DNA from: a virus
Strand: one strand, 5' to 3'
Virus record (IMG/VR): IMGVR_UViG_3300009149_000001
Coordinates: 10,199 to 74,198 of that record
DNA: 64,000 nucleotides
The notes below the pieces were generated by a model. That model worked only from the letters and a program-made list of their open reading frames with translations, was not told the origin of the DNA and ran no database searches. The translations under genes were made by a program, and so were the position numbers. Of this stretch, positions 28,064 through 54,306 are shown one piece after another. The stretch's first letter is position 1; each line of letters opens with the position of its first letter.

Positions 28064-29623
28064 TTAAAATCTTCCCATATAATATGATTGCACACCATTA
28101 GTACTCAAGCGTGCTTCCTCTTGTTCTCTACGTACAAACGATATAAGCTGTGCAGCGGTGTCAGCCATGTCTTTGGACCCAGTGCGAGGGTGATCCACTT
28201 TTTGATTCTTGATAAGGAGTAATTCGTAAAATTCTTTGAAGAGATATTTGGATCTGACGACAGTTGCACGTCCAAGGTATAAGTCGTTTCTTGCGATGAT
28301 CCAATCTGACAAGTTGAGGACGTGGTGTTCTGTGCGGATTGAGTCCAATCGAACAAGATCAAGGAGGGTATTGTGCAGGTAAATGTCGTACACGTAGGAA
28401 GTGACAGGGAAGACGGCAATGAGTCGTTTGATGATGTCGGCAACGTCATTAGTATTTATTTCTTCGCCCTTGGCTGCCTTAAACACTGTGGAACCTATTA
28501 TACGGACAGAATCATCTTGAGCATGATATCCTATTGATAATCCAAAAGCATCGTTCTTAATGGCAGGATCTACTGCTATATACCAATCTGTGTAATCTGG
28601 GTAAAGTCTTAGATCTAAACGAGATTCGTCAATTAGGGGGATAAATCCTTCTCTTGATTTAGGATCTGGTTCTCCTATGAATAAGTTGGTTAAAAAGAAG
28701 TCTTTCTCGATCTCCTCAAGTATTGCAGGATTGAAGAATGCCTCCTGCTCTAATGATGGGTTCGCACCAAAATCCCTGTCGAACGAAATAGGGTCTCTCT
28801 TTCTCTCAGCTGCGAGCGTTACTTTATCCATGTTAGGATTAAGATCCCATGTTGCTTTCCAAATTGGAATGCACCAAGCCCATTTCTCTTCTACAGCTTG
28901 AGCATGCAATGTTGTGATGAAATCTCCTTTATATTGGGGGGATGAAATAGCAACTCTAACATTCTCATTCCATTTAGTAAAAGTACCTGTGGATTTGGAT
29001 AATTTGAAGTAAACCTCTTTTGGACCATTACGAGCTGAATTATCTTGAAATGATGAAACTTCGTCTGCAACAAAGGATTTAATTGTTCTTCCTACGTTAC
29101 CGCCTGTACTGCTACCTAAAGCCTTTAAGGTAATGTATTTAGGGAATTTAATGGTGTTATAGGTAGCTGTAGGGTTTAATGACATAAAGTATGGTGAATC
29201 CATGATAAGTTCCTTTCCTCTTCTAAAGACTGTATCTAAGGCCTGAGTTTCGTTAGGTGCTACATTAACACACATGATTTCAGAGTTCTTTGCAATACCA
29301 TAGTGTTCTTGAGGATTATCTAGAAATTCCAACCGTGCGATCTCATATAGACTAATACATGCCGCAATTGTTGTTTTACCTCCTCTCATCCCTGAAACGA
29401 AAACTAGTTCAGATTTAATACGTCGTCCAGTCTCATCAAACTTGTAAAATGAACGTAAAATCTCTTTTTGAGATTCCCAGAGTTCCATACCAACACCTGC
29501 TGGATCTTCAAAGAATGCTACTACATCATTTGACCATTCTAACTTCTTAATTAATTTTTCACCCAGTGACAGTTTCTCGTATAGAGAAACATCACAAGTA
29601 ATATCAAGACGGGTTGTTGTCAA
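28064..29623 (-). CDS. terL: Terminase large subunit
   Basis: WESQ, Walker A GMRGGKT, Walker B FVADE, ISSP, nuclease IAVDPA and DHP..GSKD.AD. Confidence 0.93.
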   Translation of the reverse strand: MTTTRLDITCDVSLYEKLSLGEKLIKKLEWSNDVVAFFEDPAGVGMELWESQKEILRSFYKFDETGRRIKSELVFVSGMRGGKTTIAACISLYEIARLEFLDNPQEHYGIAKNSEIMCVNVAPNETQALDTVFRRGKELIMDSPYFMSLNPTATYNTIKFPKYITLKALGSSTGGNVGRTIKSFVADEVSSFQDNSARNGPKEVYFKLSKSTGTFTKWNENVRVAISSPQYKGDFITTLHAQAVEEKWAWCIPIWKATWDLNPNMDKVTLAAERKRDPISFDRDFGANPSLEQEAFFNPAILEEIEKDFFLTNLFIGEPDPKSREGFIPLIDESRLDLRLYPDYTDWYIAVDPAIKNDAFGLSIGYHAQDDSVRIIGSTVFKAAKGEEINTNDVADIIKRLIAVFPVTSYVYDIYLHNTLLDLVRLDSIRTEHHVLNLSDWIIARNDLYLGRATVVRSKYLFKEFYELLLIKNQKVDHPRTGSKDMADTAAQLISFVRREQEEARLSTNGVQSYYMGRF

Positions 29624-35685: not shown

Positions 35686-36000
35686 GGCCACGACAGGGCT
35701 GGATTTAAGGCGTTGTCTATCTAAATAGCTCGGATGTTGTGAGTTCAGCGTTTCAGGGAGTTTTTCTATTTCTAGACCGAGAGTCACCTGAATCATCATC
35801 TCCAGCATAGAAATGCATTCCTATACCTTTACTATCAGGGCCGAGCCCGGTTCTTTCTCAATATCGAGGGATAATTCACGTTCACAGGTAATCACTCCCA
35901 TTACTAAACTTCTCGCCTCTGTCAGGATTTATAGGATGGCAACCCTATGAGTGTTTATGACTGATTAATTTCAACCTGATTTACTCAGATAATAGTAACT
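35686..36000 (-). ncRNA. Candidate structured ncRNA
   Basis: No ORF; hairpin ATAGG/CCTAT near 35931-35948; C-box (35793-35799) and CUGA (35753-35756) on the minus strand. Confidence 0.35.
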
Positions 36001-36060
36001 AATTAATATGCGATATAGTAGCGGGATCCTATAGAAGGACGTTAGTCTTTATATGTATGG

Positions 36061-36150
36061 GTGAGTTGATGAAACCGACTTCCACACATGCTATCTCTCT
36101 AAGTACAGGTTTTGCCTGTAAGCATTCGGCTACGGGAGTTATCAACTTCA
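36061..36150 (-). ncRNA. Candidate ~90-nt nested-stem ncRNA
   Basis: GUGA(A)GUUGAU/AUCAACUCAC closing stem enclosing AGCCGA/UCGGUU, AUGCU/AGCAU and UACAGG/CCUGUA; TATA-like element at 36181-36189. Confidence 0.55.
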
Positions 36151-36438
36151 CAACACCAAATCTAGAGGAACAACGTAACGTATAATATACTAGTAATTAA
36201 TTCAATGAATAGCTTATGGCCATTAACCATACTTCTATGGCTTTTCACCATATGGACCCTTGAGACCCTTAAATATTGAGAAAAATCGTATACAAATGTG
36301 TGCCCTCAGCGACCTACGTTCCCTACTATGGTGAGGGGGATCGAGGGCAAACCGGGGTATATAAACTTTTATTTTTAATAAGGTAATACCTTATTCTTTT
36401 AAGATTAAAATAAAAAAATAAAAAAAGATTATATTACC

Positions 36439-36708: not shown

Positions 36709-37048
36709 TAACTATAGTAAGTAATAAGGGTAATATAAACCGGTGTATTAACCCAACCTTCTTATAGTAAGTCGCGCGGCACCCATTATCTTTTCCTAAT
36801 ATAAATGTTTCATCCATGTAGCCCCTCGCGCGTAGACACCCCCCTCAATACGACGGTCTATATAGCCCGGGGGGGTATAGAAGGTGAGGGTCTAGAGTCC
36901 CCTCCCACGGGTGCTTCTTTTTTGTCCCGGGTTTGGTTTCGGCTCCGATACTTTATCTAACCCGCGGTTCTATATGAATGGTAGTAACGGGAGCTTCGAG
37001 ACCCGGTCCAATACTACGGTATATATTAGGGAAGAGATTAGAGTAAGT

Positions 37049-37150
37049 ATGGAAGAGAAAGTTCAACTCACCGCAATGGAACAGTTCTTTGTGGGTGAGA
37101 TAATCGACATCGCGGTATTCGCGGAAGTTCAAATCGCCGAGGGCGATTAA
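37049..37150 (+). CDS. 33-aa acidic early peptide
   Basis: Own class-1 promoter and oligo-T terminator. Confidence 0.7.
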   Translation: MEEKVQLTAMEQFFVGEIIDIAVFAEVQIAEGD

Positions 37151-37217
37151 CTTTTTTTTTTTCTCTAAGTCCCCATGCAATACGACCATTCATATAACGA
37201 AACAGATAAGATAGATT

Positions 37218-37376
37218 ATGAAATATCTCAACGATGTAGTAGCTTTTTATGAAGAGCTATTAAAAGATGTAGAAAAAGAAAAACTAGTAAGAGCAGTAGT
37301 AATAGAAATGATAAATGATATTACTATTGAGAATGTTAGTTTTAAAAACTTAAGAAAAGATTTATTTAAAGAATAA
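37218..37376 (+). CDS. 52-aa early protein (gene lacks GG and CC)
   Basis: MKYLNDVVAFYEELLKDVEKEKLVRAVVIEMINDITIENVSFKNLRKDLFKE; own promoter and terminator. Confidence 0.7.
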   Translation: MKYLNDVVAFYEELLKDVEKEKLVRAVVIEMINDITIENVSFKNLRKDLFKE

Positions 37377-37780
37377 ATTTTTTTTTTATTTTTTTTAGGT
37401 GTTTGTCGGGTGAAAAACTTTTGCCTCTGATTCTAATATCTACTTTCCCTTATATGAATGTTTAATCGGGTGAGGCCTTCGAAGACATGTCTTGTCCCCT
37501 CGCGGCGGGTGACTTGGACTTTTGTGAGTTGAGTGTGAGAAGGGGTGAGTGGAAGGTGACTCCACTCGTTTTCACCTTTTCCCCTTTTCGTGGTGAGGCG
37601 GCTGCTCGGGGTGAGAATCTGTGTCTCACCACGGTCCTAGGACACTTCCGTGTCGTCGCACTCCGTTCCTCATTAGGATCTATTATCTAATCACCGTACC
37701 GTTATATGAATGGTAGTATTGGAGTTGAGTCCGGGGCCTCCTTTCCTACCAGTTATATTAGGGAAGAGATAAGTGATAAT

Positions 37781-37915
37781 ATGACACAACGAATAAGTCA
37801 AAGTCGATATGAAGTAATAATCTTCGGAAAAGTCGATGAAACGTATAATGAAAAATATTATACGATAGGTGGAGTAAAGAATAGAATTCGAGAATTAGAA
37901 AAACTCGATTTCTAA
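37781..37915 (+). CDS. 44-aa early protein (GpC-free gene)
   Basis: Own promoter and terminator. Confidence 0.7.
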   Translation: MTQRISQSRYEVIIFGKVDETYNEKYYTIGGVKNRIRELEKLDF

Positions 37916-38054
37916 TTTTTTTTTAATTTTGTGAGGTGAGTTCGTTTAGCCACTGATTCTAATATGTACGAAGGATAATATATATGTTTCATCTGAGTCG
38001 GGGGCCGGAACTCCAATACTACCAGTTATATTAGGGTAGTGTGTAGTATAAGGT

Positions 38055-38231
38055 ATGAGAGAAAGATATGAGTTGAGTAGAGAACTCCTTCACACCCTTC
38101 AGGGTGTTTGGGATGAAGAGGGTGAGAGTTTCTCCTTCGTTCTCTTCGTACTCTCTCAACTCCAGAAGGAGGATAAGTTAAGTCTCCGACACGACGAAGA
38201 GAAGAACGAGTGGATCGTAAAGATTCCTTAA
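38055..38231 (+). CDS. 58-aa early protein (GpC-free gene)
   Basis: MRERYELSRELLHTLQGVWDEEGESFSFVLFVLSQLQKEDKLSLRHDEEKNEWIVKIP; own promoter and terminator. Confidence 0.7.
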   Translation: MRERYELSRELLHTLQGVWDEEGESFSFVLFVLSQLQKEDKLSLRHDEEKNEWIVKIP

Positions 38232-38361
38232 CCTTTTTTTTTAATTTATCGGGTTGAGTTTTTTCGACTCTGATAGATAAGAAGATGAAAGGGTAATATA
38301 AATGTTTCATCAGGGGAGCCCCCAGCCTACGGTTTATATAACCCAGGCGGTTAGTGTAAGT

Positions 38362-38553
38362 ATGAGAGATGAAAGCCTCCTATGGCAACTCAAGAAGCGA
38401 AACGCAGCAAAGACACATTGTCTCCGCGGCCACGAGTTGCCAACACATCGCGATAGCCACGGCCGTCGCTTTTGTAAGAAGTGCGATTGTATCCGCGCCA
38501 AGCGAGCAAACGCAATCGTTCAAGCCAACAAGCACAAGTTGTGGTTTGAATAG
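38362..38553 (+). CDS. Stand-alone KTHCxxGH...CxxC zinc finger
   Basis: KTHCLRGHE...GRRFCKKC motif, known from C-termini of phage HNH proteins; own promoter and terminator. Confidence 0.7.
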   Translation: MRDESLLWQLKKRNAAKTHCLRGHELPTHRDSHGRRFCKKCDCIRAKRANAIVQANKHKLWFE

Positions 38554-38616
38554 TTTTTTTTTTTACCTAAGTCAGCAATTACTACCATTCATATAGAGCT
38601 AATGTGTATGTATATT

Positions 38617-38763
38617 ATGACACAAATAACAGATGGAGAAGATCTTTTGTTCCTCGCAAAACTCGCACAGCGAGATGGCTGGAGCAAAACAAAATTCGCA
38701 ACTTTCGCAGGCATCCACCCGACGGCCGCTGGATACCTCTATGACACGGAGGCTATCGCATGA
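38617..38763 (+). CDS. 48-aa HTH-like early protein
   Basis: GWSKTKFATFAGIHPTAA; follows a class-1 promoter. Confidence 0.55.
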   Translation: MTQITDGEDLLFLAKLAQRDGWSKTKFATFAGIHPTAAGYLYDTEAIA

Positions 38764-39050
38764 GCGATGCGTGTGTCTTCGGAAAGTGTCGGAGGTGCGG
38801 ACAAGTGAAGTGCTCCCACGCGGACAAGACCATGGAGGGTGACCTATGACGTGGTATCATTGGCAAGGCAAGTGGTATTCAAAGTCCACACTGGACGTGA
38901 ATGGACTTAGCACGTTTGGGTTGTCGAGGTCACGAGTGTGATACTTGGTGGTTGGCTGCTCCTGGCACTCGTGGTTGGGGTTGCCGCCTGGATGGCGATG
39001 TGAACGGGTCCAATACTACCACTTATATTAGGGAAGGTGATAGTGATAGT

Positions 39051-39194
39051 ATGGTGAGAGCAACAATCACATTCACACTCGAGTATCCCAATGACGCACC
39101 TATGTCAATTCTCGAAAGTGAAGCAGATGAAATGCAACAAGCACTCCAAGACGAGTACGAGGTTGAGGTAGACACTGAAGTCTGCTTCAACTAA
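39051..39194 (+). CDS. 47-aa strongly acidic early protein
   Basis: 13 D/E against 1 R; own promoter and terminator. Confidence 0.7.
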   Translation: MVRATITFTLEYPNDAPMSILESEADEMQQALQDEYEVEVDTEVCFN

Positions 39195-39395
39195 TTTTTT
39201 TCTATAGGCAAGCGCAACATTCATATTAGCCTTTCACCTTCTTATCTAGTTGAGTTAAATTTTTTTAAAAAAAAAAAATTCATAAAATCCTATAAGTCCC
39301 CACTGGGCTTTCCCCGCGGAAAGGGCGGTGAGTCTAGTATATAAGGGGCGCCGCAATCCTACCAGTTATATAACGGAAGCGATATATTATATTTA

Positions 39396-39674
39396 ATGAC
39401 AAATCAAAAAGCAAGCAGCGACGAAAAAATCTTAGAATCTTTTAAAGATTTAAAAGATCAAGTAGTCGCTCCTAATGCAAATAGCTTAAGCGAAGTTATT
39501 ATGAAGGTATTCAAAGAATATCCTACTACTAGCTTCACTCAAGGAAATTTTGCAGCTAAGCTTTCTAAGAGAACGCAACATATAAATCATGTGTTAACAG
39601 ATCTTAGAAAGAAGAACCTTATTATAAGGGAAGGTTCTGCAAAACAATATTATTTCAGATTAAATTCTGAATAA
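39396..39674 (+). CDS. Winged-helix protein, paralog B
   Basis: Inverted paralog of 36439..36708. Confidence 0.85.
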   Translation: MTNQKASSDEKILESFKDLKDQVVAPNANSLSEVIMKVFKEYPTTSFTQGNFAAKLSKRTQHINHVLTDLRKKNLIIREGSAKQYYFRLNSE

Positions 39675-43792: not shown

Positions 43793-44435
43793 CCTATTTT
43801 TTCTTGCAAACATATATAGACAGTACGGGTAATGATACAGGTATCATTATCCACAAACCAGAGCCTACTATGTATACAATGGTGAATGGATATCGCATCA
43901 AAAATTGGTGTGGATTCGGTTCAAAGTGTCCAGATAGGTGTCTCTTTCTCTCACACCCAGAGGTGTTGGAGGAAATATTCGATTCAGAGCGTAACAACCT
44001 CTAATCACTTTTTTACTTATGGAAACTAAACACGCACAAGCTATCAGGGAGACACAATGGTGTCTTCAAGAGGCATATAAGGAAGCAATACGAGTCAGTG
44101 GTATAACAGATTGGTCTGATCACGAACAAGAAGACAAGGTGTTATTAAATAGACACGTTGAAGTCTTGCAAGTAGAAATTGCAAAGATGCTTCAAACAGC
44201 ACTTCACAGTTAACATAGTTCCCAAACTTGAGCAAGTTCTACGACGACAGTCGTTACTAAGAACCTCTACGATCGAGTCGGAACGGTTAAACAACGTATT
44301 AGGAACAAATCCGGTATAAACTACAAGACACTATCCCTGTATGTAATACAGATAAGGACAAAGTTATGCCTAAACTTCCGAAGAAGTTCCACTCCAGAGT
44401 TAAGCGATGAAGGAGTAGGGCCGGAGATTACAGTA

Positions 44436-44738
44436 ATGAATATATCAGACATTATAGACGAGTGCTATAAGTGTGAACCATATCGCAAGCTTGAGAGAGC
44501 TTGTCTAAATGGTCCTGTGAAATACGAATATTCGTGTTCAGAGGAAACACAAGAAGCACTCGAAGAAGCTGATCCAACAGGTAGAGCGTTGGAGGCAAAG
44601 TGTACAAACTTAGCAGAAGTACAGGCAGCAGATGCAATCAGTGAAGAAGCATTGCACAAGCATGTTCTCGTTTGTACAGAGCATGGATGTACTCTATTAA
44701 GAGAGTATAGACACGAGCTAAAAGTTCCGGGTTATTAA
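44436..44738 (+). CDS. Hypothetical Cys-rich protein
   Basis: ORF track. Confidence 0.5.
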   Translation: MNISDIIDECYKCEPYRKLERACLNGPVKYEYSCSEETQEALEEADPTGRALEAKCTNLAEVQAADAISEEALHKHVLVCTEHGCTLLREYRHELKVPGY

Positions 44739-44790
44739 CCCACATTTTTGATGAACGTATCAACGATTCATAACGGAGGATACTAACGGT

Positions 44791-45174
44791 ATGAAAGTAC
44801 CTGCAGCATTCTTCGAAGTTAGCCCTCACTGGGCTAAAGCAATTAGTGAAGCAAAGACAGTAAAAGAACTATCTGGCAATAAAGATAGTGGCGGATCAGT
44901 CCGAGAATTTGGCGATCGCTCTATTCAAAATGCACAGAGCTGTATAGTCGGCGAAGCACACCACAATACATTCAAGTGGGGTAGCTGCCAAGAATGCGAT
45001 GCATTCAGCAGTCGATTCGGTGACATTCTCACAGGAGAATTAGACACCAAAGGCAATAGAAAACAACAGTTAGTTCAAAATATCACTGACTTCACATCTC
45101 ATTGGAGAGAGGAGCACAATCCTTTAGTTCACTTAGACATTGAAACTGAAGATGAGCTTCCAGTCATACCTTGA
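44791..45174 (+). CDS. Hypothetical zinc-binding protein
   Basis: CIVGEAH..C..C..HW..EH. Confidence 0.55.
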   Translation: MKVPAAFFEVSPHWAKAISEAKTVKELSGNKDSGGSVREFGDRSIQNAQSCIVGEAHHNTFKWGSCQECDAFSSRFGDILTGELDTKGNRKQQLVQNITDFTSHWREEHNPLVHLDIETEDELPVIP

Positions 45175-45449
45175 ATAGTGTGACATCCAAACTTTTTATT
45201 AAAAGTTTCGAGACATTGCTTAAAGGTTATAACGACTCATACGGTCGAATGACAGATGACAACATGACAAAACTTGTTCCAACCGTCAAGAAAGACGGTG
45301 ACAACTATAACATATGGAATACAGATGATCGAGTAATGGGTCACGTGTTAATCGAATTAGTCATAGCTGCAACAAAACATATGTGCGGTGGCTCATACTA
45401 TGTCGATTATAACCAAACAGCCAAGAGATTGGAAATCCATATTTTTTAA

Positions 45450-46075
45450 GGCCCAGAGTACTAACACTACCTGGAATGTTTTAAAGAAAGACACAGCGAC
45501 CTCGACTTGATTTCGAGCGAGAGTTCCTGGGGAGACAGAGTAAGCTAGTCAAATGATTAGTCCTACCCCTTCCGAATATACAATGAGCGATCTAGTTCAG
45601 CCAAAAACATACCTAACTCTGATCATAAACGGATAATGCCGCATGAACAGCAGTACACACTAGTGGGATAAGTTGGTTGCTTCCCATACAGGCAGAATGA
45701 CCTCGTTTGAGTATAATAGAGAATGGTCAAGTGAGTTAAGGGCATCTATGCCACCGTCGATTAGGACCTTAAACCGACGATATTAAATAGATAGCGTGCA
45801 TACTCTTACAAAAAGGCGCGTACGGCGAATCAGTAAATACTTTTGTATGGATGTAATAGATTCAGTCAGGAGGTTGAAGGCACATCACCAACAACCTTAG
45901 GCTGGGTCGATGATTTATAGTCATTAAGATGTAGCAGTTGCAACTGTGCGAACTGAGATAACTTCTTTCGTGGCAGGTGTATTAAAGCAGAGGCCTTGTG
46001 GAGCGGGGTATGAGCAACAACAACTCATAATCCGTGTCGAAACATGGTTGCTGGGGAGATCACCTTTCACCACTT
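45450..46075. ncRNA. Candidate large (~600 nt) structured ncRNA
   Basis: No ORF of 60 aa or more across 45450-46033 in an otherwise gene-dense genome; at least 9 stems; raised GC. Confidence 0.6.
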
Positions 46076-46145
46076 CTATTAAACACCTTTAACCTATTAT
46101 GGACATTAGATAAATCTTTATATAATATAAAAATTAATAATACTT

Positions 46146-46439
46146 ATGAAAGAAAAATCCGAGAGCTCGGTAATAGCTTCTTTCAAAGAACTAGAGGGTC
46201 AAACACCTGTTGTGTCACAATCAGCAGGCCAATTGATTCTATCTATTGCAAAGAAAGCACCTAAAACAGCTTTCAACCAAAAGATGTTCAGAGAAAAAAT
46301 GCTAGAGATTGAAGGAGCTGCAACAAGCAATCCTGCAATTAATGGAGCCTTAAGAAAATTAGCCGATGGTGGTCTTATCGAAAGAGAAGTCCAAGGGAAG
46401 CATGTCTTTTACAGACATATTAAAGCAACAACAAAATAG
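46146..46439 (+). CDS. Winged-helix protein, paralog D
   Basis: SFKELEGQ, P.TAF.Q, SNP.IN..L..L...G.I.R; leaderless TATA promoter. Confidence 0.75.
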   Translation: MKEKSESSVIASFKELEGQTPVVSQSAGQLILSIAKKAPKTAFNQKMFREKMLEIEGAATSNPAINGALRKLADGGLIEREVQGKHVFYRHIKATTK

Positions 46440-46486
46440 TCAAAGTCAAGTAAAACTTAAACTTTGAATTATTTTTTTTTTTAATT

Positions 46487-46741
46487 ATGAGCGTTAAAAA
46501 TAATATTAGCATATTGGGTGTTGGATCCATTATTATTGGTCTTATATCATGGTCATTTAGTCTATGGGTAGAAGGTTTCTACTTCATACTAATTGGTCTT
46601 GCTATGGCAGTAATCCAGATGTTCTGGGGTACTTCAGGCAAATTCCAAGAAGTATTGGATAAGCACACAGGTGCATATGATCATGAACTTAGTAACAGTC
46701 CAAAGGACAAACCAACAAAGCCACAGAGGAGACAGTGGTAG
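46487..46741 (+). CDS. 2-TM membrane protein
   Basis: Two hydrophobic helices; overlaps the HerA-like gene. Confidence 0.6.
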   Translation: MSVKNNISILGVGSIIIGLISWSFSLWVEGFYFILIGLAMAVIQMFWGTSGKFQEVLDKHTGAYDHELSNSPKDKPTKPQRRQW

Positions 46742-47709
46742 GTTTTCTTAATATAGGTACAAGGTTACCTGAAGAGTATATTACAAGACGATGTGCCATA
46801 CTGGCAAAAGTCGATTCTGGTAAAACATATACTGCAGGTAAGATTCAAGAGCAGATGGCCAAGAAAGGTTTACCCTTTGTGGTCATAGATCCAATGGGAG
46901 CTCATTGGGGTATCAGGACTAAATATCCTGTGTTAATCCTAGGTGGTGCTCATGGAGATCTTGAACTTCAGCCTGGGGATGGAAGGTACATAGCCGGTTT
47001 GGTTGTGGCCCAAAATCTCACTTGCATCCTTGATATCAATGAGTTTTCAAAGGACAATCAGCAAAGATTTGCAGCTGACTTTGGAGACGAACTTTTCCTA
47101 TTGCACAAGAAGACATCTAGTCCAAGACATCTATTCTGGGAGGAAGCCGATATATTCGCACCCCAGAGAGGAACTGCTATGTCATTGCAGGTCTTGGATA
47201 CCTTAGTTAGACGGGGACGGCAATTCGGGCTGGGCAGTACACTTATCACCCAGCGTCCAGCCGTTCTCAATAAAGACGTATTAACACAAGCAGACATTTA
47301 CTTATTCCTAAACATTATCGAGGAGGGAGCAATCAAGGTAGTAAAAGATCTACTGTCAGTTGTATCCAAAGAAGAGCGTAAGATGTACATAGACAGTATG
47401 AAAGCCTTCAAAAAAGGCGAGATGTTGTTATATAGTCCAGCTTGGTTGCAGAAGATTAAGATCTTCCAAGGAGCAAAGAAGGAGACATACCACGCAGGAG
47501 CAACACCGGTATATGGGGAGACTCAAAAGATTCCCACTCTATTGAAATACGAAACAATGCATATTAAAAATGCGTTGAATAAATTAGCAGGTAATGAGGA
47601 AGAGTGTAACAGCAGGCCAATCATTGAGGAGAAAGACCTTAAAGCCTTGAAACCGGTTATATTCATTTCAGCAGCTATAATAGCAGTAACAATGGCGATG
47701 ATACTATGA
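46735..47709 (+). CDS. HerA/FtsK-family ATPase (DUF87) with C-terminal TM helix
   Basis: AKVDSGKT, VVIDPMG, Walker B WEEAD.FAP, GRQFGLG...ITQRPA. Confidence 0.85.
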   Translation: MVGFLNIGTRLPEEYITRRCAILAKVDSGKTYTAGKIQEQMAKKGLPFVVIDPMGAHWGIRTKYPVLILGGAHGDLELQPGDGRYIAGLVVAQNLTCILDINEFSKDNQQRFAADFGDELFLLHKKTSSPRHLFWEEADIFAPQRGTAMSLQVLDTLVRRGRQFGLGSTLITQRPAVLNKDVLTQADIYLFLNIIEEGAIKVVKDLLSVVSKEERKMYIDSMKAFKKGEMLLYSPAWLQKIKIFQGAKKETYHAGATPVYGETQKIPTLLKYETMHIKNALNKLAGNEEECNSRPIIEEKDLKALKPVIFISAAIIAVTMAMIL

Positions 47710-48763
47710 GAATTAATGAACTAGAAGAAGCAAGACTTCGTGAGCTATACGAACAAGCCAACGATAAAGATGATGATCCATCCTGGCAACTAATTCGTAG
47801 CTACTACGATACATTAGGTAAGAAGTATGGCTTTGATCCAAGACGTGTTATGATTAATACAAAGGGTGAGGTTACAAAGAGGTCTTACGAGACAGTGTAT
47901 GTAGTACATGACTCAGCCAAGTCAGTACCAATAGCAGTATATAGAACTAAACAACAAGCTATGGAACATAGCATGAATGAGCCAACACTTCATTGGGATG
48001 AGGTTGGTCTTTACTAACTTTAACTTGGAAAATAAAAAATTATTTGAATTGGTCGTCGTAAGACGAGTAAGAGATGGCAAACTTAAATGTGAGTTTGAAA
48101 CAGAGTTAACCTGTGATGATAATGTTGATGTATTCAATGTTATCGAGCAGCTTAACAATTCTATCACGAGATGCTTCAATGTATTACGTGAAAAGCCAAT
48201 AACAGATTTACAGTAAACGATTACAAGGCAGGATCCAGGTCTCAGACCTAACGTAGGATATACGGAAAACCCAGTGCCGAAAATATCATAAGTTTACAAA
48301 GGAGTCGGAAGAAAGCATGCATTGATAGAGTTCCACACGAGCCCCTTAGTGCGTATCCTTTCGACCCTTTATTCCAGTTAACAGACGGTAGTATTAATTA
48401 CACTACCAGTTGACAGTAGATCTGACTAGTCATGATGACGCATTTAGCTATGTAAGCCGGTACATCCCACTACTCAGACTACTATATTACAATGAACTAT
48501 TTAATACAATGCGCTTATGGTGACACAGAATGTGATCCAGAGGGCAATGAACCAAAACAGATGTGTGATGAACACAGCAGGGATTGGCATGACGCAAGAG
48601 CGGAGTCGTACAATGACCTTGATTAGAGGCCTAAAATGTTAGCCATAGGTAACGGCGAGAAGTGTCCTTGGTGTGATTTAATTGTCACTGAGGATACAGA
48701 TGTTACTACACACATGACGGAGAATCATAGGACAGAGTTTATGAAGGAGGTCTTCGGAAACTA

Positions 48764-50300: not shown

Positions 50301-50537
50301 ATCGCTCCTAGATGTAGAGGTATATGTCACCGTACACAGGTGGGATTTAAAATGTATTCACATGCCAAGTTTTGTTCTAAATGTAAATGGTGGAGACCAA
50401 GGGAGAACACCTTCTGTGAGTGTTGCACTCAAATATTAAGAAGCAGACCGCGATCATATAATAATGGAACGAATATAACTTATGAAATCAAAAGAATCGA
50501 AAACAGCGAAAAAGGATTTGTCACTCCCCACAGGTGA
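50301..50537 (+). CDS. Thaumarchaeal-type Cys-rich small protein (CxGIC...CxxC...CxCC...LRxxP); ATC start proposed
   Basis: The CRGIC motif lies upstream of the first canonical start (GTG 50340); in-frame stop at 50265. Confidence 0.6.
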   Translation: MAPRCRGICHRTQVGFKMYSHAKFCSKCKWWRPRENTFCECCTQILRSRPRSYNNGTNITYEIKRIENSEKGFVTPHR

Positions 50538-51120
50538 GGCTCAAATTGAGACTTGTCACTTGGGTATACCTATTACAGAGTATGAGAGGGATAGCATAGA
50601 TGAATCATCCTATATCCATGAACACCTTACAACCTTAAACTTTATAGTAAAAGAGTTTAATTGTAAAAATATCCTAGAGATAGGTACAGGTCCTGGTGAA
50701 AGCTTAATGGCTATGTCAGAAAATAATCCACATGCACATATAACATCAGTTGATATTGAATATGCCCATAAAGCTTATGATAAATTGATGTTTAGGATGC
50801 ATAATATGTATAATGACTATCCTCTTAACAATGTGACCTTTATTAAAGGTGACTCGGCTAAATTAGATATGTTAGCTTGGTGGGATTTAGTATTGATAGA
50901 CGGTGGACATACATATGCTCAAGTTAAAAAAGATATAACACAAGTGCAATCATGGGTTAAAGATGGAGGATTTATGATATTTCACGATGTAACTAATCCA
51001 GCTTGGCCTGGTGTACGTAAAGCAGTTGAAGAGTATTTAGAGAAAGACCATACTTGGACTAGATACCAATGGTTTAACTGTAATGGTCTTCTAGTATTAA
51101 GGAGAGAATTAGTTGACTGA
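50482..51120 (+). CDS. Class I SAM methyltransferase (Methyltransf_24-like)
   Basis: ILEIGTG.G.S, SVDI, GDS, IDGGH.Y, GG...FHD. Confidence 0.85.
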   Translation: MKSKESKTAKKDLSLPTGEAQIETCHLGIPITEYERDSIDESSYIHEHLTTLNFIVKEFNCKNILEIGTGPGESLMAMSENNPHAHITSVDIEYAHKAYDKLMFRMHNMYNDYPLNNVTFIKGDSAKLDMLAWWDLVLIDGGHTYAQVKKDITQVQSWVKDGGFMIFHDVTNPAWPGVRKAVEEYLEKDHTWTRYQWFNCNGLLVLRRELVD

Positions 51121-51775
51121 TTGTATACACCAACCAATTGTTGATAGTGAATCAGATGCTAGAGTCTTTTGCAAATATTGTGGTGCGGAGTGGTTTCACA
51201 GATGAATGTTAATATGATAATGCAAGGACTAGCTCAGATGCAAGATGACATCTATGCCTTTTGGTTAGATGACGCTAACTCCCAACAAGATAAAGACCAA
51301 GCTATACGTGACTTTGGTAAGTGCTTGGATACTATTTTAGATTTAACCTCGCCCGCTACGATTGCAAAGGAAGTTGTTATACAGACCTTGTTAGATAAAC
51401 AGAACAAAGGTAAGTTGGCTGCCCTGAAGGAGGAGTTAGGATGAGTACTAATTGTTCTAAATGCCATGAGTCTATTTATTTTTCAGCACCTTATTACAGG
51501 ATAGTGACCGAGTATGAAGGTACTTTTAAAACCTCGACCACGAATGAATACCAACATAAGAAATGTTATGAGGACAAGACATGAGGGGACTTTGCCAATT
51601 TTGTTTTTCATCTAATGAAGAGGTCACCATACATAAGGGAATGCCATCATGCCTAAAATGTGGTAAGGATAAAATTTAATATGCCTTTATCTAGATATTT
51701 TAGATGTGAGAGATGCCAGATTAACTTTGGTAGTATGGAGCAGTTAGGTCAACATAAAAACCAGGAGCACTCAGA

Positions 51776-52465
51776 TTGGTAGATGTATTTATAGCAGCCG
51801 AGATTGGTTGTAATTGGCATGGCGATTATGAATTATTAAAACGAATGTGTCGTAAAGCACAGGAGGCTGGATGCAATGCAGTTAAGTTTCAAGCACTATC
51901 ACAGCCACTAATTGATCGTCATCCTGAATGGAATTGGTATGAATCAGCAAGTGTTAACGAAATGAACATAGACTTTATCTCTTTATTAGTTACTTCAATG
52001 GGTTTGGAAATGTTTGTTACGCCTTGTTATCCTGAAGCTGTGGAGTTTATTGATCCTTATGTTACTATGTATAAAATTAGATATGCTGATAGAAATAACA
52101 AAGAGATATTAGAAGCTTGTCTTGCTACCGGTAAAGAGGTCATACTTTCAACTGATAGGATGATTGATGATTACGAGTCTAAATACAAACATGGTCAATT
52201 AAAACAGATATATTGTATTCCAAAGTACCCAACTGAGTACGGCGAATTGAACTTCGATATGATAAAGTTATTAAGGGGGTACTCTAATCATTGTTTGAAC
52301 CCTATTGCAATACTTAACGCTGTCAGACATGGTGCAGAATATGTCGAATTTCATATCACTGATGACAGAAATGAATTTGCTATTGATAACAAAGTATCAC
52401 TCAGCTATGCAGAAATGGATGAAGTCGTTAAATGGATAAGGAGCTATGAAAGAAATCCATTTTAG
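51776..52465 (+). CDS. neuB: Nonulosonate (N-acetylneuraminate-family) synthase, no SAF domain
   Basis: IAAEIG.N..GD, G..AVKFQ, YKI, C...YP, GYS.H, GA..VE.H.T...D...SL. Confidence 0.88.
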   Translation: MVDVFIAAEIGCNWHGDYELLKRMCRKAQEAGCNAVKFQALSQPLIDRHPEWNWYESASVNEMNIDFISLLVTSMGLEMFVTPCYPEAVEFIDPYVTMYKIRYADRNNKEILEACLATGKEVILSTDRMIDDYESKYKHGQLKQIYCIPKYPTEYGELNFDMIKLLRGYSNHCLNPIAILNAVRHGAEYVEFHITDDRNEFAIDNKVSLSYAEMDEVVKWIRSYERNPF

Positions 52466-52567
52466 TATTGAAGTAGATGAACTAACTGATAGACAGAGAG
52501 AGCGTTTACATATTCTTATTCGAACTGAATTACAACGAAATACTGAACATCTGGTGATTAAAGGATT

Positions 52568-53185
52568 ATGGCCAATCCCGGAATAATTATACAAGCTCGC
52601 TTGACGAGTGACAGATTTCCAAATAAGATGCTCTGTCCTTTGTACGGTAAACCTGTTATACAATGGACTGTTGAAGCATGCCTGAAATCTGGTTTGCCTT
52701 TTGTAGTTGCAATTCCAGATAAGAGAACTGACTGGGGTCTAGCTGAATGGTTTAAGTTATATGATCCTACAATTGAAGTGTTTTCAGGTCATCCAGATGA
52801 TTTAATTTCTAGATTTAAGCATGTAAATAATGTAATGGATTTTGATCCTATTATTAGAGTTTGCGGTGACTCACCAATGATGAAGGTGTCTGATATACAT
52901 GATGCTATGTATCAATTTAATAAATATGGTACATATCAGAGAGTAAACTTGGTAGAAATCTTTTCACAAAAAGAATTAGATTATGCTGCCAACAATGATC
53001 CGTTTATGGCTCGTCGTGAGGATTGTGTTAATATATTAAATCAGACAGTTGATTATCCAGAGGATATAGATAGAATAGAGGGTGAATGGTTATTGGATAA
53101 CTCCCAAGATAATAATATGGAATTAAACAAAAATAGAATTAATAATGATTTATCAGATTATCAATCAGGAGAAACAGGACTTTAA
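52568..53185 (+). CDS. CMP-nonulosonate synthetase (SpsF/NeuA-like cytidylyltransferase)
   Basis: IIQARL.S.RFPNKML, IRVCGD.P, TVDYPED. Confidence 0.85.
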   Translation: MANPGIIIQARLTSDRFPNKMLCPLYGKPVIQWTVEACLKSGLPFVVAIPDKRTDWGLAEWFKLYDPTIEVFSGHPDDLISRFKHVNNVMDFDPIIRVCGDSPMMKVSDIHDAMYQFNKYGTYQRVNLVEIFSQKELDYAANNDPFMARREDCVNILNQTVDYPEDIDRIEGEWLLDNSQDNNMELNKNRINNDLSDYQSGETGL

Positions 53186-53632
53186 ATGAACGGATTAAAA
53201 ATAACTGATGAGTCTTTAAAAAAACATCAAGAAGAAAGACAAACAGCAGCAGCTTTAGGATTTAAATTAATCAAACAATTTGTAACAGATTATCCGAACA
53301 CTGAATATCCATCAGTTGATGATAATTTAATTGAAACATTTTGTAGAGGTGCTAGATTATTGGGTATGTATCACATGGTATTACCAGAAGATGATACATT
53401 TTGTCCGACTTGTAAATACACGACAGGTAAATTAAAGAATTGTCTATCACTTCATACAATGGAAGGTTCGGGCAAAGATTCAACACTTTGTATATATTGT
53501 AGTTATGAAGGAACTATACAAGATTTGGGAATGAGTTTATCATTTGGTGATGAAGAAGATCATGATTGGAACATACAGAAAGAACATGACTATTATAATA
53601 AAGCCATATTAAAAGCAGAGGGTTGGAATTGA
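53186..53632 (+). CDS. Hypothetical zinc-binding protein
   Basis: CPTC and CIYC. Confidence 0.5.
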   Translation: MNGLKITDESLKKHQEERQTAAALGFKLIKQFVTDYPNTEYPSVDDNLIETFCRGARLLGMYHMVLPEDDTFCPTCKYTTGKLKNCLSLHTMEGSGKDSTLCIYCSYEGTIQDLGMSLSFGDEEDHDWNIQKEHDYYNKAILKAEGWN

Positions 53633-54306
53633 CTAATAGAGTATTAATAGTTGGTGCAGGGCCTTCCCTCAAATCTAATATAGCTGATTTTAAAAGGTTA
53701 GGAGATTTCGATGGGACTGTTATTGCTACTGATGCAGCTATTCAGCATTTACTCAGAGCGGATATCGTACCAACTGTCGGTGCTTGTCTCGAAGATCTTG
53801 CGGCGTTAACTAAATACTTTGTCCCAGATGTTGTAGTTGAGAGAGGACATGAGATAGAGAAATGTTGGATTAGTGATAGAGTTCACGGTCAAGTAAGAGC
53901 AACTATGAAGACCGCTAATATACCATTCGAGGTAGCAGCAAAGACTAGATTAATTGGTACCTCTAATGTAGGGTTGTTTAGTACAGCCATTGCACATTTA
54001 ATTTATGAAAGCGACGAAATACATTACATCGGTATGGATCACTGTTACCCTGCCGATTCACCTCCTCCTGTACCTAAATCAGATCCCCTTTATGAGCTCG
54101 GGTTTTATGAGATTGTCAATCCTATCACTAATGAAACGCTCGTCTTAAACCCAGCACATGAGTTGTGGAGAGAGGAGCTACATGAGAATTTAAAACTTTG
54201 GCCTGAGGTCAAAATAATTAATCATACTGGTTATGGAGCAATATTCGGGAAACAAATTACATGGCAACCACTGAAAGATCTACAAGAGTGGAAAGAGAGT
54301 TACTAG
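53623..54306 (+). CDS. DUF115/MAF_flag10 (Maf-like) putative nonulosonate transferase
   Basis: IVGAGPSL, IATD.A...L....I.P, SNVG, I..IGMD, IIN.T..GA. Confidence 0.75.
   Translation: MELTNRVLIVGAGPSLKSNIADFKRLGDFDGTVIATDAAIQHLLRADIVPTVGACLEDLAALTKYFVPDVVVERGHEIEKCWISDRVHGQVRATMKTANIPFEVAAKTRLIGTSNVGLFSTAIAHLIYESDEIHYIGMDHCYPADSPPPVPKSDPLYELGFYEIVNPITNETLVLNPAHELWREELHENLKLWPEVKIINHTGYGAIFGKQITWQPLKDLQEWKESY

Follow-up and report, generated by a model that had tools for sequence, protein, structure and literature searches.

A conserved ORF-free element of about 375 nt in a tailed virus with a probable archaeal host, a candidate non-coding RNA gene

Abundant and stable non-coding RNAs are known from eukaryotic DNA viruses, of which adenovirus VA RNA and the Epstein-Barr virus EBERs, both acting as protein decoys, are familiar examples. 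In archaea, stable RNAs are released from precursors at long processing stems, as in the bulge-helix-bulge processing of pre-rRNA. To our knowledge, almost nothing is known on non-coding RNAs of archaeal tailed viruses, and a search of the literature found no paper on an RNA such as the one considered here.

We analyzed an intergenic gap without ORFs in the genome of a tailed virus and found within it a unit of about 375 nt (positions 45688 to 46063) that recurs as stand-alone contigs in sequencing runs of two studies. We put the probability at roughly 0.45 that this gap in a tailed archaeal virus holds the gene for a new, discrete, and abundant plus-strand non-coding RNA (ncRNA), which would measure about 375 nt and be released from a longer precursor; the strand, the ends, and the function of this RNA are what we infer. 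The coordinates of all features are collected in Table 1.

Table 1. Positions, strands, and properties of the features in and around the gap (numbering of the window)
Feature	Positions	Strand	Remarks
T6 run	45441..45446	+	Overlaps the stop codon that ends the upstream ORF; the upstream unit likely terminates here, in archaeal fashion
ORF-free gap	45450..46145	.	Between a 92-aa ORF (ends 45449) and a 97-aa gene (starts 46146)
5' flank of putative closing helix	45618..45701	+	Can pair with 46036-46110; long, imperfect
Hairpin TGGGA/TCCCA, 13-nt loop	45664..45686	+	Just upstream of the core; loop hypervariable, G-C stem pairs kept
Core, putative mature RNA of ~375 nt	45688..46063	+ (inferred)	Stand-alone contigs in RNA-type libraries, two studies
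Invariant 5' block	45695..45847	+	X2 and X3 identical to the window (153 nt)
Long hairpin (predicted)	45859..45908	+	Outer stem 45859-67/45900-08, inner stem 45870-76/45892-98; in MFE and centroid structures
Small hairpin beside the long one (predicted)	45911..45923	+	A45923>G turns A-U into G-U
Invariant 3' block	45974..46063	+	X2 and X3 identical to the window (90 nt); hairpins TATGAG/CTCATA and CCGTGT/ACATGG
3' flank of putative closing helix	46036..46110	+	Contains GATCACCT (46058-46065)
TATA-type promoter of the downstream gene	46116..46125	+	PWM score 10.3; 31 nt before the ATG

The virus, its ORF-free gap, and the search for relatives

The DNA analyzed here (the window, 64,000 nt) comprises bases 10199 to 74198 of a 74,198-bp virus record that has direct terminal repeats and is rated complete. 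A terminase, a portal, a tail tube, and a tape-measure protein are present, as in a tailed virus, and the virus is very distant from any GenBank phage, with a terminase at best 23 to 25% identical and empty DNA searches. Features of the genome sequence lend good support to an archaeal host, probably within the Thermoplasmatota: a TATA motif of the TTATATAA type stands at a fixed distance of 31 nt before leaderless ATGs, genes end in T5 to T11 runs, and the named cellular proteins closest to the viral QueC come from Thermoplasmata MAGs and Aciduliprofundum (45 to 47% identity). Genes inside operons carry GGAGG.

Several other loci of this genome deserve mention in their own right. The regions 756-2374 and 50482-54306 encode QueC (7-cyano-7-deazaguanine synthase), an ERCC4-domain nuclease, a methyltransferase, a NeuB-family synthase, a cytidylyltransferase, and an MptE/DUF115-like gene, and the last four likely form a nonulosonic-acid module. 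An array of repeated promoter units of about 50 nt (TACTACCAGTTATATTAGGG..., with the ATG 31 nt after the motif start), which drive very small ORFs and include inverted copies, occupies 36900-39400. Beside the gap, at 46735-47709, lies a gene for a HerA/FtsK-type ATPase (DUF87), which the virus has besides its canonical terminase (28064-29623); this ATPase has hundreds of homologues, many of them forms of about 550 aa fused to PF05872.

The gap is 696 nt long, occurs as a single copy in the 74,198-bp virus genome, and is one of three gaps in the window that reach at least 350 nt without a 50-aa ORF. The two others are located at 35809-36438 and 48217-48677, and the former of these is the place where minus-strand structural genes give way to plus-strand early genes and where the cumulative GC skew is lowest. 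According to the ORF list and the stop map, the longest ORFs of the gap under study have 48 to 49 aa. TAA, TAG, and TGA are each found in all six frames, so that no stop-codon reassignment opens a gene, and a change of the genetic code is thereby ruled out as an explanation of the gap. Thus, the proposal of an earlier note on this DNA, made from the letters alone, that the region is non-coding was borne out, since no ORF exceeds 49 aa and stops stand in all six frames.

Searches for relatives of the gap were carried out at the DNA and protein levels. Neither a distant blastn search with the gap nor a megablast search with 12 kb gave a match among GenBank phages. Exact scans with four conserved blocks of 21 to 26 nt found nothing, three of the blocks having been run against 2.9 million viral contigs and two against 185,579 species genomes (one block in both). 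A search by the two neighboring proteins alone found no relative in viral contigs, and a search with an ATPase alignment recovered nine metagenome loci and, from viral contigs, a single distant one (L002). The close ATPase loci (L003 to L005; 70 to 77% amino acid identity) are 1.0 to 1.6 kb in length and end short of the gap, while the distant ones (33 to 46%) lack an ORF-free gap of this kind and show no similarity by blastn or nhmmer; the whole 55-kb L002 record likewise gave no match to the gap. Contigs of 69.9, 36.2, and 20.8 kb carry homologues of the ATPase at 72 to 76% identity and of QueC at 67 to 89% identity.

As regards known RNAs, the Infernal search against Rfam suggested in the earlier note returned no family: Rfam 15 had no match at gathering cut-offs in the whole window, and at E ≤ 10 with permissive filters no ROOL, GOLLD, OLE, intron, or rRNA model matched 45100-46400. 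Four matches were obtained in the latter search (three C/D snoRNAs and one plastid UTR), all at chance level and 30 to 60 bits under their cut-offs. A C/D box sRNA was rejected on these scores, the best matches having 15 to 19 bits against gathering cut-offs of 55 to 80 bits (E of 3.6 to 8.5) and one of them a guide spacer of 28 nt. ARAGORN detected no tRNA or tmRNA. A group I or II intron or a split gene was also discarded, in view of the lack of an Rfam match, the promoter that the downstream gene has of its own, and the stop codon plus T6 run in which the upstream ORF ends. The same note had pointed, as a speculation, to a resemblance of the 3' end to 16S helix 45 followed by an anti-Shine-Dalgarno sequence. 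This idea found no support, because the archaeal SSU model RF01959 matched nothing in the virus genome at E ≤ 10 (14 of 14 control genomes were matched), the window has five copies of the 8-mer GATCACCT where about two are expected, and the anti-SD core CCUCC is absent from the 3' end, which reads GAUCACCUUUCACC. The putative RNA at 45688-46063 fits no described family.

A discrete unit in public sequencing runs

31-mers from the gap were found in eleven public runs, which belong to seven studies and include five RNA-type libraries. Four runs were aligned to 44400-47200 at a likeness of at least 80%; runs with a small share were left out, and parts of the stretch without cover in RNA runs were not counted as evidence. 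Run X3, a marine RNA-Seq cDNA library, provided two contigs (45688-45922 and 45905-46054), and run X2, which belongs to another study, provided one whole contig of 373 nt over 45691-46063. The contigs of both runs are 97% identical to the window, have 12 differences in common, and carry no loose ends, and their ends agree between the runs within 3 to 9 nt. Both runs leave the flanking genes uncovered, except for two short, low-depth, and partly unlike pieces of X2 at 45055-45159. A circular RNA was considered and dropped, as the contigs include no back-joint or circular junction.

Two explanations of this pattern may be offered: either RNA of the roughly 375-nt unit greatly outnumbers that of its neighbors, or the unit is a module common to carriers whose flanks differ. 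Under both readings, 45688-46063 is a discrete conserved non-coding element. Neither transcription nor strand, true ends, or expression level can be read from contigs, and the flag 'probably DNA' on X2 leaves X3 as the one firmly RNA run; for these reasons, transcription of the core into an RNA product is likely but not proven.

The second explanation, in its fullest form, is a conserved DNA module residing in otherwise diverse viruses, for instance a mobile cassette, a unit of recombination, or a region that binds protein and has imperfect terminal inverted repeats, in which case contigs would stop where the flanks begin to differ and the RNA reads would be incidental. The contig ends could then be breaks of the assembly graph at the edges of the shared module, which tells against our preferred reading. 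Consistent with such a module, a contig of the soil DNA run X6 matches 45611-45735 and continues as sequence unlike the window, the similarity beginning at 45611 and being lost to the left of it, the flanks of the core make an inverted-repeat-like helix, and the run with a depth of 13.8 on the core against 2.7 to 3.3 on the pieces of flanking genes is X2, the one with the DNA flag. In contrast to X2 and X3, X6 covers 20 of 30 bins across the whole 2.8 kb, patchily, which favors the RNA reading, and a seawater DNA run, X8, has a 166-nt contig over 45615-45780. Against the module stands X3, in which a cDNA library of only 102 million letters holds the core at a depth of 11 and no flank at all. 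Besides, the element is single-copy in this virus, and its conserved blocks are missing from the viral contigs and species genomes that were scanned; a MITE or other repeated mobile element was rejected on these two grounds and on the imperfection of the flank helix, the only one present. Iterons and an AT-rich unwinding region are also lacking, and the cumulative GC skew turns at about 36 kb, away from the gap. A replication origin was dismissed along the same lines, the GC content of 41 to 45% being above that of the flanks and no repeat family being found. Taken together, we regard a DNA module as an unlikely explanation.

Variation, folding, and transcription signals

The preferred reading, a processed plus-strand RNA, leans in part on how the X2/X3 variant differs from the window. 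Eleven of the 12 differences lie within 45848-45973, that is, 11 in the 126 nt of the center (9% of positions) against 1 in the 250 nt of the two sides, where a uniform rate would give about 8. On the 5' side, no change in X8 (to 45780) or X6 (to 45735) is among the differences listed for these runs. Within the variable center, the long hairpin has changed in ways that keep its pairs: G45873>A together with C45895>T is a compensatory pair, and A45860>G and C45863>T retain their pairs as G-U. The outer stem already has three G-U pairs in the window, and such wobble pairs work on the plus strand only. This hairpin is the only helix with comparative support, and we estimate at about 0.05 the probability that, with 12 changes placed at random, the two partners of a predicted pair are both struck and still able to pair.

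A second kind of variation is seen just upstream of the core, in the hairpin TGGGA/TCCCA. In X8, 7 of the 14 positions of 45669-45682 (the 13-nt loop and the first base of the 3' arm) differ from the window, against a single further site in the rest of the 166-nt contig, and X6 has several differences in this hairpin, mainly in the loop. The hypervariable loop might set specificity, or it might be a patch of escape from CRISPR. Direct repeats were also inspected. A 13-nt repeat, GTT(C/G)CTGGGGAGA, is found at 45523-45535 and 46047-46059, 524 nt apart, with its second copy at the apparent 3' end of the core; about 0.2 such repeats are expected by our estimate, and we took neither this one nor the 7-nt repeat GGTTGCT, both within chance expectation, as meaningful.

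The nine stems reported in the earlier note are all present where they had been placed, two of them (CTAGTCA/TGATTAG and CCGTGT/ACATGG) with the help of a G-U pair. The region has 13 perfect stems of at least 5 bp with loops of 3 to 30 nt; dinucleotide shuffles have 12.5 ± 3.7, and other 626-nt pieces of the window average 19. The z-scores of the minimum free energy (MFE) for the plus and minus strands, respectively, were -2.14 and -0.04 in the 696-nt gap and -1.04 and -0.32 in the 376-nt core; in 150-nt sliding windows, the region ranged from +0.5 to -2.7, equal to or weaker than the flanking coding DNA. The comparative tests, which rest on one natural variant (X2/X3), gave a similar picture. 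When the variant is forced into the reference MFE structure, it loses 16.1 kcal/mol, more than the 8.8 ± 4.5 kcal/mol lost by 1000 random mutants of the same spectrum; the change of its own MFE (+2.3) is unremarkable against random mutants on both strands, and so is the two-sequence alifold energy (-96.2, with a random mean of -96.2). Tests for an overall conserved fold of the core are thus at chance level, and the support for the single hairpin is anecdotal.

These results bear on the kind of RNA that had been proposed, a structured large ncRNA of about 600 nt with the dense structure of ROOL, OLE, or GOLLD. Its non-coding character stands and an RNA product is very probable; the unit, however, measures about 375 nt, and its structure is no better than chance. 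The dense structure was not confirmed, as there is no model match and no thermodynamic excess, and the variant is no more compatible with the fold than random mutants. What we probably have is a virus-encoded ncRNA that is new, smaller, and far less demonstrably structured than the earlier proposal.

Elsewhere, the strongest local structure in 44400-47400 is a set of nested inverted repeats at 44459-44563, inside the ORF at 44436-44738, in which GAGTGCT...AGCACTC closes CAAGCTTGAGAGAGCTTG and the 12-nt palindrome ACGAATATTCGT. Their folding z-score is -5.1 (about -6 and -5 in sliding windows on the two strands), and an Rfam search by E-value over 44300-44800 gave nothing usable for them.

The flanks of the core offer a further, long-range pairing, the core of which joins 45662-45694 with 46045-46074. 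The flank-flank energy calculated by RNAduplex is -32.7 kcal/mol, against -23.0 ± 4.2 kcal/mol in 300 shuffles, 5 of which reach it (P of about 0.02). Both contig ends (45688 and 46063) fall within the core of this helix.

Transcription signals were examined with a position weight matrix (PWM) derived from the promoters of the virus itself. The best plus-strand score in 45430-45700 was only 3.5, which is background, and no promoter motif is found on that strand within 250 nt upstream; there is also no run of five or more T after 46063. The only good promoter matches near the region, apart from the promoter of the downstream gene, are mirror images of the TATA motif on the minus strand, at 46132, 46127, and 46115, with scores of 8.1 to 9.8 against a background of 0.5 per kb. 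They raise the alternative of a minus-strand RNA that would start at about 46084-46101, from the AT-rich promoter region of the downstream gene, and run leftwards, antisense to the local genes. A minus-strand T5 run (45605-45609) falls at the left edge of the conserved module (45611-45615), which would suit such a transcript. The TATA motif, however, is nearly palindromic, and minus-strand matches are therefore expected beside any plus-strand promoter. Furthermore, the minus strand folds like its own shuffles, and the G-U pairs of the long hairpin, together with its A>G and C>T changes, become A-C mismatches there. Another minus-strand T5 run, at about 45812-16, sits in the middle of the core under continuous cover, and the contigs end 21 to 45 nt short of the predicted start and about 80 nt short of the predicted stop. 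A minus-strand RNA is therefore improbable in our judgment. The plus strand is favored because G-U pairs work there only, its folding z-scores are better, and the core has no T run of five or more on that strand.

The proposed RNA, its alternatives, and its nearest parallels

The processed plus-strand RNA that we prefer might arise as follows. Transcription would proceed on the plus strand, the strand of all neighboring genes, within a precursor of at least 500 nt that comes either from read-through of the T6 run at 45441-46 or from an unrecognized promoter. The two flanks of the precursor would pair as the long imperfect helix, a double-strand-specific RNase would cleave inside it, and the stable RNA thus freed would accumulate far above the neighboring messages. 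The invariant 5' and 3' thirds may be the working surfaces; in a purely inferential picture, they would bind a host or viral protein or an RNA in trans, as a decoy or a scaffold. The central hairpins (45859-45925) would serve as a structural spacer that tolerates pair-preserving change.

A more far-reaching version is a new family of processed and highly abundant ncRNAs in tailed viruses of Thermoplasmatota-like archaea, released at the flank helix and using two invariant domains to act in trans on a host factor, with the hypervariable hairpin loop possibly setting strain specificity as in loop-loop antisense systems. We consider this generalization speculative and rather unlikely as a whole.

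It could also be that the gap is a plain spacer or a decayed gene without a function of its own, the RNA contigs being read-through of the upstream operon. This would agree with the absence of any thermodynamic or statistical sign of structure, with a plus strand that has no promoter or terminator of its own, and with frame +1, in which only 3 stops are found in 125 codons. Read-through, however, would also cover 45450-45687 and the upstream genes, which stay uncovered, and a spacer would hardly keep blocks of 153 and 90 nt invariant beside a center that differs at 9% of its positions; moreover, no protein family matches any frame. For these reasons, a spacer is quite improbable.

Finally, the gap might encode one or more micro-proteins, such as a 49-aa minus-strand ORF (45924-46073) or a 48-aa plus-strand ORF (45946-46092). 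Differences between the natural variant and the window are spread over the codon positions of the most open frame as 4, 5, and 3, with no third-position bias. Small genes are numerous in this virus and AGGTGATC on the minus strand (46065-46058) resembles a Shine-Dalgarno sequence, but micro-proteins are very improbable, given that nearly all changes of the variant are non-synonymous in every small ORF of the gap, that T45947>C abolishes the GTG start of the 48-aa ORF, that PHROG has no family at E ≤ 0.01 for the small ORFs and frames, and that no ATG in the gap has a TATA motif at the fixed distance of 31 nt. The region accordingly does not resolve into the conserved micro-ORFs that the earlier note had named as the finding that would speak against an ncRNA, and coding in the gap (45450-46145) appears excluded as far as the data go.

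A real RNA that outnumbers the neighboring viral messages in RNA data from the ocean, is 97% conserved between subsurface and marine sites, and belongs to no family would open a way to learn how such viruses handle their hosts; should the element be only a DNA module under conservation or a spacer, it would be an ordinary finding.

Among described systems, GOLLD (RF01998), ROOL (RF03087), and OLE (RF01071) are likewise ncRNAs of several hundred nucleotides, and the putative RNA described here resembles them in that it is carried by a prokaryotic virus and seems abundant in RNA data. It differs from them in that it matches no covariance model, is shorter (about 375 nt), has no dense covarying structure that we could see, and belongs to an archaeal rather than a bacterial virus. 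Archaeal C/D box sRNAs produced weak cmscan matches in and beside the region, but the spacing is unlike theirs (28 nt versus about 12 nt). With archaeal pre-rRNA, the locus shares flanks that can form a long helix with the apparent ends of the core inside it, whereas no canonical bulge-helix-bulge was recognized, no circular junction occurs in the contigs, and there is no similarity to rRNA. VA RNA and the EBERs offer the parallel of a single-copy gene among protein genes that gives rise to a highly abundant, untranslated viral RNA. Size, host domain, and transcription machinery are different, and the likeness therefore concerns a possible mode of working and not membership in a family.
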